Of a DNA stretch of 64,000 nucleotides, positions 5,058-52,119 are shown piece after piece. The stretch covers positions 16,306,001 to 16,370,000 of the forward strand of contig OZ231126.1 in NCBI GenBank assembly GCA_965153355.1. Direction: 5' to 3'. How positions within the stretch are numbered: the stretch's first letter is position 1; each line of letters opens with the position of its first letter. Under the pieces are notes generated by a model that was not told the origin of the DNA, ran no database searches, and saw only the letters and a list, made by a program, of their open reading frames with translations. Source of the DNA: Flaccisagitta enflata (taxonomy: Eukaryota). Both the position numbers and the translations under genes were made by a program.

Positions 5058-19859
<14,802 letters not shown>

Positions 19860-22103: not shown

Positions 22104-23242
22104 CACGCCCCTTTTTAACTGAGGTAGATAGGAAAAAATTCCACAGCATAGCCGCCTATTCAGGGGCACTATTTACATGTAGACGCATGCATCCATGCTA
22201 AAAACAAAAAATTCTGTTGGGAATTTTACGAGAAAATGCCGTAAAATGCCGTATGAACCTGTAAAAATGACATTTTTGTCCATAATGTTAAGTGAAACTT
22301 ACTCAAAACCAGCGGCTCTTGTTAAATAATGCAGATATGGCACTAATGCACATTTGTGCTTATGTTCAATTGATGCCGTCATCATTTGATGTCATTTTTG
22401 CTGAAAATGCCGTAAAATGCCGTAATATGCCGTTTTTCTGGCACTACCCTTTCTTAATGCCTGATATTCACTTGACAACTAAAAGCAAATGGGTATTGAG
22501 GCCTGCGACACACATATTGTTAAGTTTCAAAACAGAGCACAGAAATTCAGTCACATTGCAAAGCCGTAATAGGCGGAAAATTTCCGTAAAATTTCAAAAT
22601 TGGCAGTTTTTTGTATGAATTTGCCAAAAAAAACTGCTCCACTTGTACGATGATGACCATTTTATGATGAAATGACACTAAAATAAATTAATGCAAATAA
22701 GTTTGTGGGCAAATTAACCCAATAAATTATCAAAAACGCCATTTTACGGCAATTTACGACCTGTTACGGTATTTAAAGACGCCCAAAGATCATTGATTTG
22801 TATCAAGCTTCTTACATTTTTGTGTCCTAGGCCTCAATTCACATTTTCTGTCAATTTGCATATGAATGTTGCCTAATTGGAGGATAAAAAAAAGATGATT
22901 TGGCAAAAACCAACTTTTAACGGCATTTTACGACATAAAATGAAGTACATTAATGACGTCATCGCTTGAATCTTTGCATGAATGCGTGTTAGTGTCATAC
23001 AGATATTGTTTGACCTATTGCTGACAAGAGCCGTTGTTTTTGACTGAGTTTAAACCAACAAATTTGTCAAAATTGCTGTTTTAACGGCTTTTTACGGCAT
23101 TTTACGGCATTTTCTCGTAAAAATCCCAACAGAATTTTTTGTCTCAAGCATGGTGATGTACCCCAAGGTGTACTTGGTCAGATAAGACGTGTCACAATGC
23201 TGTGGAATTTTTTCCTACTTGCCTCAATTAGAAAGGGGCGTG
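22104..23242. mobile_element. Non-autonomous Chapaev-like DNA transposon
   Basis: TIRs CACGCCCCTTT...GGAAAAAATTCCACAGCAT / ATGCTGTGGAATTTTTTCC...AAAGGGGCGTG, CAC/GTG termini, a 4-bp flanking duplication GGCT, and AAATGCCGTAAA subterminal repeats. Confidence 0.7.
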
Positions 23243-23549
23243 GGCTTTTCATCATTGATAAAGTAATCCTTGCTGATTATGAGCAGAATCATAAATTATA
23301 TTTAATTTTGACCATTTTTTGTTAACTAATCATTGTCCCAACATTTCAAGAAGCATCGCTCTCGGGTGGCAGACCCTAAGTGGACAAAGTGCTGTCAAAC
23401 CAGAGAGATGAATGGATGGATGGATGCACATGGCAGAAAGACCATCTTATTACCCCTGTCTCCTACAGTACGTTGTTACTTATACCGATATCACTACTGC
23501 TAATTGTGATGCTTCTTGCAATGTTGTGATAGCAGCAAGTAAACAATTG

Positions 23550-23603
23550 TTATTCCATCATGATGTATGCGATGACGCAAATAAACAAGACTTCGATCAA
23601 ATT
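23550..23603 (-). pseudogene. Displaced original 3' coding end of the Ly6 gene (hydrophobic GPI-signal-like tail)
   Basis: Removing the element and one TSD continues the frame as ...SGSMDFT-NLIEVLFICVIAYIMME* (TAA at 23552-23550). Confidence 0.8.
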
Positions 23604-23611
23604 CGTAAAAT

Positions 23612-24801
23612 TAGGGCCGGCAGTAGTTAACTTTAACTAGTTAGTTAACTAGTTAATTTTCCGAAAACGGTAGTAGTTAACTAGACCAAATTAACTAGTT
23701 AAAATAGTTAAAAAACAAAAAAAGTAAGTGTTGAATTGTTAAGTCCTTTGAAACACTCTAAGCTGTTGAAAATAGATTTGTAGGCCTGCTTTTTGTTCAA
23801 AATAGTGCCTGCAATTACATTTGTGCGTCTGTACTCTGCAAGACTGAAGCTTCATGCATCAGTTCAAACTGAAAATGGTCGTGATACAAAAATCACGTCC
23901 TGATAGTGTTTTATGCACCAATATGTGGAATCATCTTAAGATTATGGCAAGTGATCCAGAATGGGTCAGGAACTCAGTCCATATTATCTTTTTGGGCCTT
24001 TCAATGAAACCCATTTCTTCTGCAGACTTTCAATGCTCAAGTAAATGTGTTAAGCCTTTTTTTATCTCATGTAGTATTCTACGTCATTGCATATGGATTT
24101 ATCAATTGCACTAAATTGAATGTTCATAAGTCTATATCTGTTAGTCTATCGGTCTGCAAGCCTGTCTGCCACTCAATCATTCCACATTTAAGTTTTGTTT
24201 TAGTTTTCTGTGAATAACTCATACAACAACTTAGATTATTGAAGCAAAGGACATCAGATATGGGATCACAAGCAAGTATTCATGATTTTTGAACAATTTG
24301 GCTAATTCATTGATCAATTACTCTGTCAAAAAAAAAGGAAATGGTTGTTCAACAACCTCTGCATCCTCAGTTGGGGTAGAAAGAGTCTACAATGCAGCAG
24401 GACTAAGTTTCTAAAGTGATAGTTTCTCTCACTAACAGGAATGTTGATAATCTTTGCTTTCTATGAAATAACTTGTCTTGAAAAATCTATTCTTTTGCTC
24501 TTCGTTTAGTAATAATGGACTAGATGTTTGTCCTGCTTTGATATAAGGTTGATATAATCTTGAAACAATCATTGTTTGCCATTTGAACTAATTTCATGGT
24601 TATTCTGCATTATGCCATCATGATCAAGATAGATTTCAAAAACATTACATGACTTAACTGAGAGATATATGGCTTACCAAAGATTTCACGCTTGAAAACG
24701 ATGGAAGCTGGTTTTAACTACTTTATTAGTTAACTAGGCAAAAAAGTAGTTAGTTAACTATTAACCAGTTAATTTGAAATCCTTAACTACTGCCGGTCCT
24801 A
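23612..24801. mobile_element. Non-autonomous hAT-type element, copy 1 (1190 bp), inserted in the last exon of the Ly6 gene
   Basis: TIR TAGGGCCGGCAGTAGTTAA / TTAACTACTGCCGGTCCTA, perfect 8-bp TSD CGTAAAAT (23604-23611, 24802-24809), and TAGTTAAC subterminal repeats. Confidence 0.9.
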
Positions 24802-25178
24802 CGTAAAATCCATCGACCCCGAAAAATTCATCGTTCGCGTTTCCAGGTCCTTGTTGGAATTGCAGTAATTCGTGGTGCAGGAATATTGGCAAATTATGAG
24901 AGAATTTTCTTGGAGGCAATGGGGTGGTGTATTGTGCAATTGAGGATATAAATCGCCCGTGCAGCCTCTGTCGACCGATGTTAGGTTTCCGTCCCAGAGC
25001 CATAATTTCACGATTTCGCATTTCTGAGCATCGTCTGAGCCGCAATCTTTTTTTTTGGGGGGGGGGGGAAAGGGGGTAGATGTTGGGTTAACTTTACTTT
25101 TTACTAAGTTACTTATTCAATCAATCCTCACTCCTCAATCCAGCATTCCGTTTCTAATTTCTTTCATCGTTTTCATAG

Positions 25179-25246
<68 letters not shown>

Positions 25247-25247
25247 C

Positions 25248-25295
<48 letters not shown>

Positions 25296-25911
25296 TCATC
25301 CGTTCATTCACTCACTCACTCACACTCACTCACTCACTCACTCACTCACTCACTCACTCACTCACTCACTCACTCACTCACTCAATCATTTATTCATTCA
25401 TCCGTTTGTGCCGAAATATGGCTAATCTATTACTACCCTTGTAGTTATTAATCTGTGGCATCCTGATACGGTACCAACAAGGCCGGATACACAGCCACCA
25501 GTTGCGGACAGGTGGGCAGGGGCGGAAATGCGCGTTTTCCCACTTTTCAACTCGAGCGTGATGGACGGACGGACGGACGGACGGACGGACGGACGGACAA
25601 AGCCTCTTAAAGAGTTGCGTGTCCGCAACTAAAAATAACGATGATTAAGTGTTTGAGGAAATCTTTGGGGACCGCTCGGTGCAGCGGTTTAGAATAAGAA
25701 AGGGAAGAAGTTGCGTTCTATGACCTGTTTCGGTCCACACTTCTCGCCGCTGAGAAATGTCGTCGTCAGTGCATCCAGTGTCAGTGCTCTCGCATCCAGC
25801 ATCCCAGCATTTTCGCGCCCACCTGCATTTGACGCATTTCAAACCGGAAACGCCGGCAATGATCGCCAACGCCGTAGTGAATACCAACAGCATCGCAGAT
25901 ATTTGCATCAT
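24799..25911 (-). CDS. Ly6/uPAR (three-finger) domain protein with signal peptide; C-terminus truncated by the transposon
   Basis: Exons 25911-25725 and 25046-24799 (phase 1): MMQISAMLLVFTTALAIIAGVSG LKCVKCRWARKCWDAGCESTDTGCTDDDISQRREVWTET|DCGSDDAQKCEIVKLWLWDGNLTSVDRGCTGDLYPQLHNTPPHCLQENSLIICQYSCTTNYCNSNKDLETRTMNFSGSMDFT*. Shows the LxCxxC start, RGC and CxxxxCN end of the family. Confidence 0.85.
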
Positions 25912-26794
25912 CTTGCTTAAAAGAGAATTAAGGAGAGGTGCCATTAAAACAGGGCTAGATGTACGCTGAATGGAGTCGAAGATGTTCCTCCCTTTTTTCA
26001 CCCAGCAGGGTTCGCACTCACCACGCGACGTTCTTGGTTATTTTCCTTTGAAAAGAATCCTACAAAACACCAACTGATGAAACAGTTATCACCGACAGAG
26101 CTCCGAAATTTCTCATTATGTTCTATTTCATTTTTTTATCAAAATTTGTTCGTGTTGCGTCGTCGTTGTGTCAGTAGGCAGCATCTACAGTTTTTAACAG
26201 GATATTCTTCTCTTATGTTTTGCACCACCCATGATTCCAATGCTACTTTTTTAAGACTACGAGTTAACATGCCGGTCGGTTGATAGTTACATCCATCCGT
26301 ACTAGGTTCGGCAGTAGTTAAGGATTTCAAATTAACTGGTTAATAGTTAACTAACTACTTTTTTGCCTAGTTAACTAATAAAGTAGTTAAAACCAGCTTC
26401 CATCGTTTTCAAGCGTGAAATCTTTGGTAAGCCATATATCTCTCAGTTAAGTCATGTAATGTTTTTGAAATCTATCTTGATCATGATGGCATAATGCAGA
26501 ATAACCATGAAATTAGTTCAAATGGCAAACAATGATTGTTTCAAGATTATATCAACCTTATATCAAAGCAGGACAAACATCTAGTCCATTATTACTAAAC
26601 GAAGAGCAAAAGAATAGATTTTTCAAGACAAGTTATTTCATAGAAAGCAAAGATTATCAACATTCCTGTTAGTGAGAGAAACTATCACTTTAGAAACTTA
26701 GTCCTGCTGCATTGTAGACTCTTTCTACCCCAACTGAGGATGCAGAGGTTGTTGAACAACCATTTCCTTTTTTTTGACAGAGTAATTGATCAAT

Positions 26795-27615
26795 AGCTTG
26801 TACCTAAATGACTAAAAGCAATAAAATCAGAATTCTACATGTAGTTCTTGTTGTGGGGCTGTCTTGGGCTTCTGATGGCATCAATTTTGGTCTGAAAAAT
26901 TTGCATCTTGCTGTCCGCGCCTTACCTTGAATTTTCCTTCAGCTTATGGGAAACCAAAAATTTCAAAGTGCTTAAATCTCTGTTTTGACTGCAGATTTGA
27001 AATCTGCAGAAAAAACTGTTAATTGAAAGTGCTTTCCTTTTTTCAATATTCCTTGGGGATCATAGTCAAAATTCGTCTTAAAGATGTAAAAAAAGGTGAG
27101 TTCGGCGATTTTACATATACAGTTAAACCCCGCAATAACGGATGTCAAGGGACTAACAAATTTTATCCACTATAGGCGGATTTCCCTTATTGCCAACATA
27201 GAAATTAAAAGAAATTGACATAAAGGGACCAAGTTATAAGATCCGTTATAGGCGGATTTCCCTTACTCTTGGATCCGTTATAGCGGGGTTTAACTGTAAA
27301 TAAAAGAGAAAGGTAAGTTTTGCAAACTTTGACACTTATTTTGAGCACCTTCTAGTTGGAATATTGAAAAAAGGAAAGCACTTTCAATTATCAGTTTTTT
27401 CTGCAGATTTCAAATCTGCAGTCAAAACAAAGATTTAAGCACTTTGAAATTTTTGGTTTCCCATAGGCTGAAGGAAAATTCAAGGTAAGGCGCGGACAGC
27501 AAGATGCAATTTTTTCAGACCAAGAGTGATGTCATTGGAAGCCCAAGACAGCCCCACAATAAGAACTACTTGTGGAGCTCTGATTTTATTGTTTATTGTC
27601 ATTTCGGTACAAGCT
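26795..27615. mobile_element. Foldback element with ~250-bp TIRs nested in hAT copy 2
   Basis: AGCTTGTACC...GGTACAAGCT ends and long inverted arms. Flanked by duplicated ATTGATCAAT, which is single in copy 1. TSD length is ambiguous because the site is palindromic. Confidence 0.75.
27120..27296. mobile_element. Tc1/mariner/pogo-type MITE nested in the foldback element
   Basis: TA|CAGTTAAACCCCGC...GCGGGGTTTAACTG|TA. Confidence 0.8.
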
Positions 27616-29688
27616 ATTGATCAATGAATTAGCCAAATTGTTCAAAAATCATGAATACTTGCTTGTGATCCCATATCTGATGTCCTTTGCTTCAATAATC
27701 TAAGTTGTTGTATGAGTTATTCACAGAAAACTAAAACAAAACTTAAATGTGGAATGATTGAGTGGCAGACAGGCTTGCAGACCGATAGACTAACAGATAT
27801 AGACTTATGAACATTCAATTTAGTGCAATTGATAAATCCATATGCAATGACGTAGAATACTACATGAGATAAAAAAAGGCTTAACACATTTACTTGAGCA
27901 TTGAAAGTCTGCAGAAGAAATGGGTTTCATTGAAAGGCCCAAAAAGATAATATGGACTGAGTTCCTGACCCATTCTGGATCACTTGCCATAATCTTAAGA
28001 TGATTCCACATATTGGTGCATAAAACACTATCAGGACGTGATTTTTGTATCACGACCATTTTCAGTTTAAACTGATGCATGAAGCTTCAGTCTTGCAGAG
28101 TACAGACGCACAAATGTAATTGCAGGCACTATTTTGAACAAAAAGTAGGCCTACAAATCTATTTTCAACAGCTTAGAGTGTTTCAAAGGACTTAACAATT
28201 CAACACTTACTTTTTTTGTTTTTTAACTATTTTAACTAGTTAATTTGGTCTAGTTAACTACTACCGTTTTCGGAAAATTAACTAGTTAACTAACTAGTTA
28301 AAGTTAACTACTGCCGGCCCTAATCCGTACGTCTATCACTCTTTACCCTTGCGGCGTTGACGGGTTGTTTTCGCGGTACTATCCCTGGCTGAATTGTGGA
28401 TTATTCCATCTCATTGCACCCCCTACCCAGCCGCACGGGACGAAGGTAGTCGTGTATTCAGCCTTCTTTACAAATTACAGCACTCTTAAGTCTCAAGTTC
28501 CATTCTCCATTCTTTTTAATTGGTGGTTACTAGAAGGGCCGTGGAGAGAAATGTCATGTACATGTCCTTATTTCAATGTCGAATCGCCTTTTTGGTCGCA
28601 TTTGTCAGTCAAATTGACCGCCGCGACAATCTGTTATTGCTTATTAGTCACGTGCACGTGACTCTATGACCCACCCTGTCTGTCTGTCGGTCCGTCTGTC
28701 GGTCTGTCTGTTGGTCCGTCACGCTTAGCTTTTTTGTTGTTTTACATCATTTTAAGTCATTTTAAGTTTTTTATAAACAATTTACATTTAGTCTTTTAGT
28801 CTTTTGGTCTTTTGGTCTTTTAATCTTTTAGTCTTTTAGTTGTATGGTCTCATGGTCTTAACAATCGCACGCGTCTGTAAGGTGTTGGTCTTGTTTAGTT
28901 GCGGACTCGCAACTTTAAAACAGGCTTTGTCTGTCCGTCCATCAGTCCGTCGGTCTGTGAACACGAGTCAAAAAATGGAAAAACGAGCCCTTTGAATATT
29001 TCTTGTGTATGTTTGCGTGTTGGGCTGGGGGCCAGGGTGTGGATGGGGACTGGATGCCGCTGCCCGCCCGTTCGCAACGATATTGTGATCCCGCGTCACT
29101 TGTTCCTCACCGTGCTGCCTAGCTGTGATACGTAGGAAAAAATGACACAGCATGGCGACCTATTCTGGAGTGTTATATACACCTAGACGGATGTCCCCAT
29201 GCGTGAGACCAAAAATTCTGTTTGGATTTTGACGAGAAAACGCCGTTAAAAGCCTTAAAATGCCGTAAAATGGGCATTTTTCAACAATTTTTGTATATAA
29301 AGAGCTAAAGAATTGCCAATCTAGTCAGGTAATGGCCAAACATTAATGATAAGGCACTGATACACGATCAAGCAAAAATTTGGGTCATGCCAAAATCGAC
29401 TGGTATCATTTTTTGCCATTATATGCCGTCAAGATGGCATTTTTAAGCATTTTTGGGTGTTACTCACTTGTAGAGCACAACAGTAATTTGAAAACTGCCA
29501 GAAAAAGTGTATAAGAGCCTAAAACAAATGAATTATAAAGTTTCTCAACAGTGTTGCAATATTGTCCTGTACCGCAAAAGGTTGTAAAATGCCGTTAAGA
29601 CAGTATTTGTGGCATTTTTTTTTGGGTATTTAGGCCCATGCAACTCCTCTGCTTGTGTTGCATTTACGTGAGCATCTGTGTGCGTGCA

Positions 29689-31404: not shown

Positions 31405-32193
31405 AGAGATGATATTGACCTAACTGTCTCAATAACTACCCTGAAAAGTGTCAGATATCCCATTTTTACGGCATTTTCTGGCCTTCCAATATCATTTTTA
31501 CAACTAAAAATTGTCTTGAATCGCTTAGAATATCTGGATGAATGTATTTTAGCACAAACTCATCATGGTTTTACTGATTTCTGACCAGCAGAGCAGTTGC
31601 ACGAGTGATTATGCTGTAAAAAAAGCTTAAAATGCCATTTTAACGGCATTTAACGACTTTTTACGGGATATTGATGAGGCCACATTGCAACGCTGTGTTG
31701 AGAAACTTTGATACATGTTTGTCTTAGCACCTAATACCCTTTTTCTGGCATTTTTGAAGCTACCGTCCTGTGATTAAAGAGAGTAACTTCCAAAAAATGC
31801 TTGAAAATGCCAGTTTGACGGCATTTTACGGCTTAAAATGATATCAAATGATGGCTGCTTGGCCTGAATTTCTGCGTGATTGTGTCTCAGTGCCATATCA
31901 ATAATGTTTGACCATTTCCTGACTAGCTTGGCTACTGCATCTCGGTTTTTTTATGGCGGACCTCCCCGGTCCGAGGAAAAACAAAAAAAAAATGGCCGTA
32001 GAGCAAAAATGCTCATACCGTTCTCTGATTCAGATTGAACGGCAACTAGCTAACTGAATTTGACACAATTTCTTACCTGCTGCAGCAATAAACAGGACAG
32101 ATTACGAGCTGCTGTGTCAACCCCATTACACTACCTCTCTCTTGGGCGCGTATATTGGCCTCTCACACCACTGCAGATATTCTGCATTGAATA

Positions 32194-36302: not shown

Positions 36303-37017
36303 ACCTCCCAGTTACACATTTTCGCCTTTTCGGTTGCTTTTCGATGCCCGGGGATGCCCTCTGTCGTGTATGAGCGTCTCCATAGTTGATTTATGTGGTT
36401 GGTAACGTCTTGGACACATTGGTTCTGCTGGTTTGTCATAAAAAACAACACTTATCAACACTGGATATAAGTTGAATGTTTTTATTAGTTCAGCTTGCGA
36501 CTCATATTTCAAAAATTACCGCGAGATCCAGCCTGAGCTTTGGTGGTCCTATCCTTGATAGTTTTCTCTTGCCGTACGCCGTCGCAAACAAATTCCTTAA
36601 ATTGATCTTAATCCTTTTTTTGCTTGAAGAAGAAAAAAAAACCGCGGAGAGCATAAGCGGTCCATCTTTACACGCAATCTAAGAACCGGTCACTATTTTG
36701 AGCTATGTTTCTTGCTCAATGAACTAAAAAAAACGGTGAAAAATGCCCATTTTACGGCATTTTACGGCTTTTAACGGCGTTTTCTCGTAAAAATCCAAAC
36801 AGAATCTTTGATCTCACGCATTGGGACATCCGTCTGGTTGTATATAACACTCCAGAATAGGTGGCAATGCTGTGTCATTTTTTCCTACCTATCACAGCTA
36901 GGCAGCACGGTGTCCTGTTTGGAATTCCACTTTGCTGACTAACTAAAAGGAGAAGCCGAAATAATGTCGACATGATAAATCATTAATTGTCAACTATTAG
37001 AATAAGAAAGTGCACAA

Positions 37018-37715: not shown

Positions 37716-52119
<14,404 letters not shown>

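Follow-up and report, generated by a model that had tools for sequence, protein, structure and literature searches.

A hAT-like insertion supplies the stop codon of a small Ly6/uPAR-like gene of Flaccisagitta enflata and separates it from its hydrophobic tail

What becomes of a protein predicted to be tethered to the membrane when a transposon lands between its extracellular domain and its tail? The question is raised by a small gene on contig OZ231126.1 of Flaccisagitta enflata (assembly GCA_965153355.1), which we analyzed in a window of 64,000 nucleotides (positions 16,306,001 to 16,370,000 of the forward strand). All positions below count from the first letter of this window. The gene, which lies on the reverse strand, resembles members of the Ly6/uPAR (LU, three-finger) family, and its last coding exon is interrupted by a non-autonomous, hAT-like element of 1,190 bp. 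The reading that we favor, with a probability of about 0.75, is that a recent insertion of the hAT type cuts the membrane tail off an LU-like gene, the empty allele of which is expressed.

The anatomy of the insertion can be read from the letters themselves. The element (copy 1, forward strand, 23612-24801) was recognized by its inverted repeats and subterminal words. Its terminal inverted repeats (TIRs) of 19 nt, at 23612-23630 and 24783-24801, are 95% complementary and start with TAGG. On both flanks lies the 8-bp target-site duplication (TSD) CGTAAAAT, the distal copy at 23604-23611 and the gene-proximal copy at 24802-24809. The two are identical at 8 of 8 bases, a match that has a chance of 4^-8, or about 1.5e-5 per site. 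Translation across the gene-proximal junction gives the codons ATG GAT TTT ACG TAG, in which the duplication covers (D)-F-T and the new stop, TAG (24799-24801, reverse strand), is made of the element's terminal three bases. Past the element the gene frame goes on as NLIEVLFICVIAYIMME and then reaches a TAA. The open reading frame (ORF) loses 17 codons and gains no foreign residue. The cysteine domain is untouched, because the new stop comes 20 codons after its last cysteine codon. A preliminary description of this stretch had placed the TSD in the codons for D-F-T, taken the terminal TAG (24801-24799) for the in-frame stop, let the frame resume beyond the element and called the cysteine domain intact, and the reading of the codons agreed with it at each of these points, apart from small refinements of the coordinates.

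The structure fits a simple course of events, in which a cut-and-paste DNA transposon of the hAT type would have jumped into the final coding exon of this small gene. The staggered 8-bp cut would have doubled the (D)FT codons, and the TAG of the tip, falling in the gene frame, would end the ORF at once. Since both element tips read TAG inward, any insertion of this element family into a coding exon gives an immediate stop in one of three frames, in either orientation.

What does the interrupted gene encode? Exon 1 (25725-25911, reverse strand, 187 nt) begins with the ATG at 25911 and is followed by the donor GT at 25724-25723. It was defined by translation and hydropathy, and its end was confirmed by an RNA contig from a public metatranscriptome run (X8). 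The product of this exon is MMQISAMLLVFTTALAIIAGVSG followed by the mature start LKCVKC..., and the first 39 mature residues hold five cysteines. A signal peptide is predicted, the h-region having a mean Kyte-Doolittle hydropathy of 2.31. The phase-1 GT..AG intron (25047-25724, reverse strand) is absent from the X8 RNA contig, in which 25046 is joined straight to 25725 (with a loose end behind 25023), confirming the intron. At 25161-25602 the intron contains three successive microsatellites, (CAT)n, (CACT)n and (GGAC)n.

The coding part of exon 2 that is left in the insertion allele (24802-25046, reverse strand), delimited by translation and cysteine spacing, adds 81 residues with seven cysteines and ends in ...CTTNYCNSNKDLETRTMNFSGSMDFT (...NFSGSMDFT) before the TAG. 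The mature domain as a whole has 102 residues and 12 cysteines (spacings 2, 5, 4, 6, 16, 7, 18, 14, 8, 3 and 4), closes with C-x3-C-x4-C-N, and carries an asparagine after the last cysteine. On the far side of the element, the orphaned end of the original ORF (23550-23603, reverse strand) consists of the 17 codons for NLIEVLFICVIAYIMME and the native stop TAA (23552-23550). The native 3' untranslated region spans at least 23327-23549 (reverse strand), an RNA contig of X8 covering 23327-23570, and an ATTAAA resembling a polyadenylation motif is found at 23306, 244 nt past the native stop. A tblastn search of the window with three peptides returned the gene itself as the sole match, everything else having E values of 0.25 or more.

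We then asked whether the orphaned stretch was the original end of the protein. An exhaustive HMMER search with the exon 2 peptide against 1.84 billion representatives returned a single relative, P0004 (E 1.8e-15), which is identical to exon 2 at 45 of 81 residues. The tail of P0004 is uninterrupted and ends in ...GSGMDFTNLGEVMFICVIAYIMME (in its wider context, ...CNSNSDLETRTITLTGSGMDFTNLGEVMFICVIAYIMME), with 15 of 17 residues identical to the orphaned tail. Because this sole relative keeps the tail contiguous and so similar, the orphaned tail can be taken as the ancestral C-terminus. The N-terminus of P0004 looks like a mispredicted read-through of an intron. A word-index protein search scored none of three candidates for exon 2, and P0004 retrieved itself alone; among metagenome contigs, a P0004 query gave no relative in 67 pattern matches. 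With exon 2 as the query, 119 pattern matches included three weak metagenome loci (19-28 residues at 48-63% identity), which we took as chance matches; the inspected part of one of them, L002, held nothing like the gene.

Signals for a glycosylphosphatidylinositol (GPI) anchor combine a signal peptide with small residues at the omega and omega+2 positions, which a polar spacer separates from a hydrophobic run at the C-terminus; there is no cytoplasmic tail. Judged by hand with this rule, the protein with its original tail has the outline of such a signal. NFS (-26) and SGS (-24) are the omega candidates, followed by spacers of 7 or 5 residues, and the hydrophobic run extends over 15 residues (mean Kyte-Doolittle value 2.67) with one residue after it and no cytoplasmic extension. 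P0004 has GSG where the window protein has SGS. For the truncated product, the mean Kyte-Doolittle value over the final 17 residues is -0.78. The GPI-signal-like tail of the preliminary description can thus be retained as an ancestral C-terminus with the outline of a GPI signal, and by the same hand rule GPI anchoring is predicted.

Does an allele without the element exist? The preliminary description had proposed to look for one by mapping reads. We aligned Logan contigs from four public runs to 23300-25150 and found, in three of the four (X3, X8 and X13, one contig each), a joint of 23603 to 24802 that skips 1,198 bases (1,190 + 8), with 8 ambiguous letters. The shorter side of the joint contig measures 63 letters in X3, a marine metagenome labeled 'DNA?'; 54 letters in X8, where the RNA contig is 352 nt long with 2 other letters; and 49 letters in X13, an oligo-dT RNA run from a study other than that of X8. 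The X8 contig runs over the junction of exon 2 and exon 1, indicating that it represents spliced mRNA. Early in exon 2 it lacks 6 nt of the window sequence, with the frame preserved, and a T>C change at 24887 is common to all three joint contigs; both differences indicate haplotypes other than the assembled one. The fourth run, X1, gave no empty-site joint and no cover over 24850-25035, although holes in contig cover prove nothing. The simplest reading is that an expressed, spliced empty-site allele is present in natural marine populations. That the event was recent and possibly polymorphic, as had been proposed from the perfect TSD, is supported by these contigs and by a second copy of the element that is about 99.7% identical to the first.

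The joint contigs also differ from the window within the coding sequence. That of X3 carries an in-frame CCC insertion behind 24901 and a cluster of substitutions (24887-24906), and the deletion in X8 falls within 25024-25040. The loops of this small protein appear to be highly polymorphic among wild alleles.

The second copy tells more about the element. Copy 2 (26303-28322, reverse strand) is inverted and lies 391 bp upstream of the ATG. It is flanked by a perfect 8-bp TSD of its own, ATCCGTAC, at 26295-26302 and 28323-28330. Compared with copy 1, it shows two mismatches over 707 nt and a single gap over 487 nt, besides two differing bases at one tip; the TSDs of the two copies are not the same, indicating two independent insertions. 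Copy 2 is interrupted by a nested miniature inverted-repeat transposable element (MITE) of 821 bp (26795-27615), which has TIRs of about 258 nt, 92% matched (280-nt arms if the duplicated flank is included), and a perfectly palindromic 10-bp TSD, ATTGATCAAT. Long TIRs together with a TSD of 9-10 bp suggest that the MITE may be a Mutator-like element. The two inverted copies, with like ends facing, flank the promoter region together with the two coding exons.

The longest open frame in copy 1 is 88 codons. The words TAGTTAA/TTAACTA occur in the 1,190-bp element only near the two tips, at positions 13-94 and 1103-1172. The TIR core, the 12-mer GGCAGTAGTTAA, allowing at most one mismatch, was found at six sites in the window, where 0.21 were expected, and none of 100 shuffles reached six; all six sites fall inside the two element copies. 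Contigs matching 23300-25150 number in the hundreds (753 in X1, 310 in X3), and contigs that reach the element's left tip continue into differing flanks, which indicates a multi-copy family. The element family is young and present in high copy number in this genome.

Its anatomy agrees in several respects with non-autonomous hAT elements such as Ds of the Ac/Ds system, and with Hermes. Both insertions here have 8-bp TSDs, and the TIRs are short and imperfect, 19 nt as against 17 bp in Hermes, with short repeats near the tips; Hermes is described with these three features in PMC10368747. The same source gives nTnnnnAn as the target preference of the Hermes/Ac type. Copy 2's TSD, ATCCGTAC, matches it at both set positions, whereas CGTAAAAT in the gene matches at one of the two on either strand, a comparison that covers two sites only. 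The element tip, TAGGG, agrees with the YARNG tip of hAT elements. Duplications of 8 bp are also made by the P, Merlin and Zisupton superfamilies, to one of which the element might instead belong. Unlike an autonomous hAT transposon, neither the element nor the window showed a BED or hAT dimerization domain, the Pfam scan of the window covering 68 ORFs.

Is the gene a member of the Ly6/uPAR family? According to PMC6600238, the LU signature comprises 60-90 residues with 10 plesiotypic cysteines and an asparagine invariably after the tenth, and in LU genes the domain is spread over two exons, the introns are of phase 1 and the last exon holds the GPI signal. The mature start L-x-C-x-x-C and the asparagine after the last cysteine agree with this signature (PMC6600238). 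The layout of the gene agrees with that description in part: one phase-1 intron splits the domain and the tail is in the last exon, but the signal peptide has no exon of its own. With a low-confidence model of P0004, Foldseek gave the LU domain of Lypd6b as the best match (E 0.03), and among the first 20 matches listed at least 13 were titled LU-domain proteins or ectodomains of TGF-beta-family receptors. In the ESM Atlas, the look-alike clusters that carry a Pfam family were assigned to QVR, UPAR_LY6, Toxin_TOLIP, UPAR_LY6_2, Activin_recp and ecTbetaR2, with scores of 0.76-0.91, and serve as leads. Overall, the gene is probably an LU member. The name Ly6, given to it in the preliminary description, is favored by the cysteine pattern, the look-alikes and the weak Foldseek matches; it found no backing in Pfam or in a confidently modeled fold.

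What product would the insertion allele make? The truncated protein would keep the signal peptide, the whole cysteine domain and the small-residue stretch that contains the putative GPI attachment site. Without the hydrophobic run it would be neither processed by the GPI transamidase nor held in the membrane, and, if made, it would be secreted. The new stop lies in the last exon, so that decay dependent on exon junctions is not expected, and an AATAAA at 24727, inside the element and 72 nt past that stop, makes a shortened mRNA plausible. The RNA runs barely cover the interior of the element, from which no firm conclusion can be drawn on whether the filled allele is expressed. Among the possible outcomes, a soluble secreted form seems somewhat the better guess, an effective null a clearly less probable result, and any other outcome improbable.

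A number of observations weigh against the reading of a recent hAT-type insertion into an LU-like gene with an expressed empty allele, and they have to be considered together with the alternatives. Concerning the empty site, the Logan sequences are assembled contigs, without raw reads. The 'DNA?' label of X3 is guessed, and the X3 joint contig, of depth 6, departs from the window by 9 letters and 3 gaps within 140 nt; its source may be a haplotype that has diverged, a sibling species or a close paralogue. Because no listed contig of the four runs bridges the filled-site junctions, the insertion has so far been seen in this assembly only. Could the element, instead, be removed from the transcript of the insertion allele itself, as an accidental intron or by precise RNA excision, so that the tail is restored? 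The preliminary description had named such splicing as an outcome that would overturn its account, and the tail-restored junction is indeed found exactly in RNA contigs of two studies (X8 and X13), which are silent on their allele of origin. However, the skip of 1,198 nt can be placed at nine offsets, none of which has GT..AG or AT..AC ends, and its length, the element plus one TSD, is the hallmark of an empty site. The identical joint occurs in X3, the run labeled DNA, and the 6-nt indel of X8 and the shared T>C point to other haplotypes, making removal from the transcript highly improbable. We also doubt, less strongly, that the insertion allele is a null owing to unstable mRNA, silencing by double-stranded RNA from the inverted copies, or failed protein quality control. 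Near-identical inverted copies do bracket the gene, and no RNA contig aligned to the stretch reads from exon 2 into the element, a weak sign because contigs drop rare forms. Against a null stand the position of the stop in the last exon, the nearby AATAAA, the intact signal peptide with all 12 cysteines, and the fact that deletion of a GPI signal usually yields a secreted protein. As to the element, its 8-bp TSDs, short TIRs and subterminal repeats speak for the hAT label of the preliminary description; a Pfam scan of 68 ORFs in the window turned up no transposase, and the superfamily is a classification by anatomy.

The identity of the gene and the nature of its tail are the other points at which the account could fail. 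A typical Ly6 domain ends in adjacent cysteines, CC-x4-CN; the domain here ends in C-x3-C-x4-CN, and its 102 residues and 12 cysteines exceed the LU consensus of 60-90 residues and 10 cysteines. No Pfam family reached E <= 10 with the peptides of exon 1 and exon 2 or with P0004 as queries, phmmer against the PDB gave only a spurious leucine-rich stretch of a ribonuclease inhibitor (E 0.07), and Foldseek gave no match at E <= 0.001. The AlphaFold model used is that of P0004, covers the exon 2 part only, and has a mean predicted local distance difference test (pLDDT) score of 42. The gene might accordingly lie outside Ly6/uPAR, as an unrelated lineage-specific cysteine-rich secreted protein that is Ly6-like in outline only. 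That it has a single relative among the 1.84 billion representatives also fits this view, as does the finding that one third of shuffled proteins likewise score ten of ten Atlas family matches in one clan. We nevertheless consider it unlikely. The L-x-C-x-x-C start, the C-x4-C-N end, the signal peptide and the hydrophobic tail argue for the family; LU and TGF-beta-receptor ectodomains dominate the top Foldseek matches; every Atlas look-alike cluster shown with a Pfam family has one of the three-finger type; and the Pfam negative is weakened because the queries were separate exon peptides, each with part of the domain. The tail itself (23553-23603 against residues 117-133 of P0004) is better conserved than the domain, 15 of 17 residues as against 45 of 81. 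Such strong conservation is odd for a cleaved GPI signal and might be due to gene conversion or to a role of the tail itself. It would suit a retained membrane segment, a short transmembrane anchor at the C-terminus in which an acidic residue is conserved, in which case the insertion would remove a functional membrane part. A glutamate within the hydrophobic run is conserved, and AlphaFold gives residues 118-132 of P0004 as helical at a pLDDT of about 30. On the other hand, the run is short (15 residues, 12 after the glutamate) and is followed by a single E, with no cluster of cytoplasmic stop-transfer charges. SGS/GSG triplets 5 residues upstream give both proteins the classical GPI-signal outline, and with two sequences only, the conservation could come from gene conversion or a close paralogue. 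A retained anchor therefore appears rather improbable, and we keep to a tail with the outline of a GPI signal on an LU-like gene.

The remainder of the window offers little that bears on this gene. Inverted repeats at 23079-23156 and 29194-29270 were considered as bounds of a larger, gene-carrying mobile unit and rejected as such, since they belong to a dispersed short repeat of tandem ACGGCATTTT-like units that also occurs at 22206-22322, 31629-31923 and 36750-36809. On the reverse strand, an ORF for a reverse transcriptase of the long interspersed nuclear element (LINE) type lies at 41709-42572 (RVT_1, E 1.1e-17, the sole Pfam match past the cut-off), adjoined by an ORF of 329 codons at 40407-41393 (reverse strand) with no Pfam family. 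A forward-strand open frame of 1,154 codons (16395-19856) is rich in Ala, Ser, Thr and Pro, with long poly-Q runs toward its end; it matches no Pfam family and may represent a large exon of low complexity. The window is unusually rich in microsatellites, as well as in GA/CT and CA/GT repeats.

The locus is a clean natural example of a truncation in which no foreign residue is added, the full cysteine domain is kept, and the predicted membrane-attachment signal alone is removed. Provided that the truncated allele is expressed, it and the empty one amount to a natural experiment on the tethering of a three-finger-type protein. The gene also represents an unannotated, highly divergent LU-like family with one relative in the 1.84 billion representatives. 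The outer ends of the two element copies, 23612 and 28322, could be treated by a transposase as those of a composite transposon of 4.7 kb, which would copy the tail-less gene elsewhere. That membrane-tethered and tail-less secreted alleles of an LU-like gene both stand in the wild, the tail-less one bracketed by copies that could mobilize it as a composite, is a joint reading that we regard as quite improbable in its entirety. Truncation of a C-terminus by a transposable element is a known kind of event, and the insertion itself is in this respect ordinary. A literature search, which was not exhaustive, found no paper that joins Ly6, hAT, transposon and GPI anchor; nor did the titles and beginnings of abstracts of the papers listed, in a search likewise not exhaustive, yield a case that combines a transposable element insertion, a GPI anchor, a premature stop and a secreted product.

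How does the gene compare with known systems? Its description as a secreted disulfide-rich ectodomain with a C-terminal tether is a comparison that does not depend on LU membership. Like the GPI-anchored LU proteins CD59, Lynx1 and Drosophila Quiver/Sleepless (QVR, PF17064), the protein has a signal peptide, the L-x-C-x-x-C start and the asparagine end. It shares with them a small-residue linker and a hydrophobic run in the last exon (as set out in PMC6600238), and its Atlas look-alike clusters carry QVR and UPAR_LY6. It differs from them in its 12 cysteines and 102 residues (10 and 60-90 in the family), in the C-x3-C-x4-CN end, in the lack of a Pfam match, in a single exon that encodes the signal peptide along with the N-terminal half of the domain, and in an unusually conserved tail.

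A second comparison is with the secreted LU proteins, the SLURPs and the snake three-finger toxins, for which the transition from a tethered to a secreted form has been deduced from phylogeny alone (PMC10421932). There, Koludarov et al. (2023) give a stop codon before the C-terminal hydrophobic region as the likely route. Unlike the snake toxins, the protein here gives no indication of a toxin function, and its secretion and LU membership are predicted. The route itself is alike, in that the hydrophobic region at the C-terminus disappears while cysteine domain and signal peptide stay in place (PMC10421932 for the toxins). The difference is that the change in SLURPs and toxins is ancient and fixed, whereas here the stop comes from the tip of a transposon and appears to segregate as a polymorphism.

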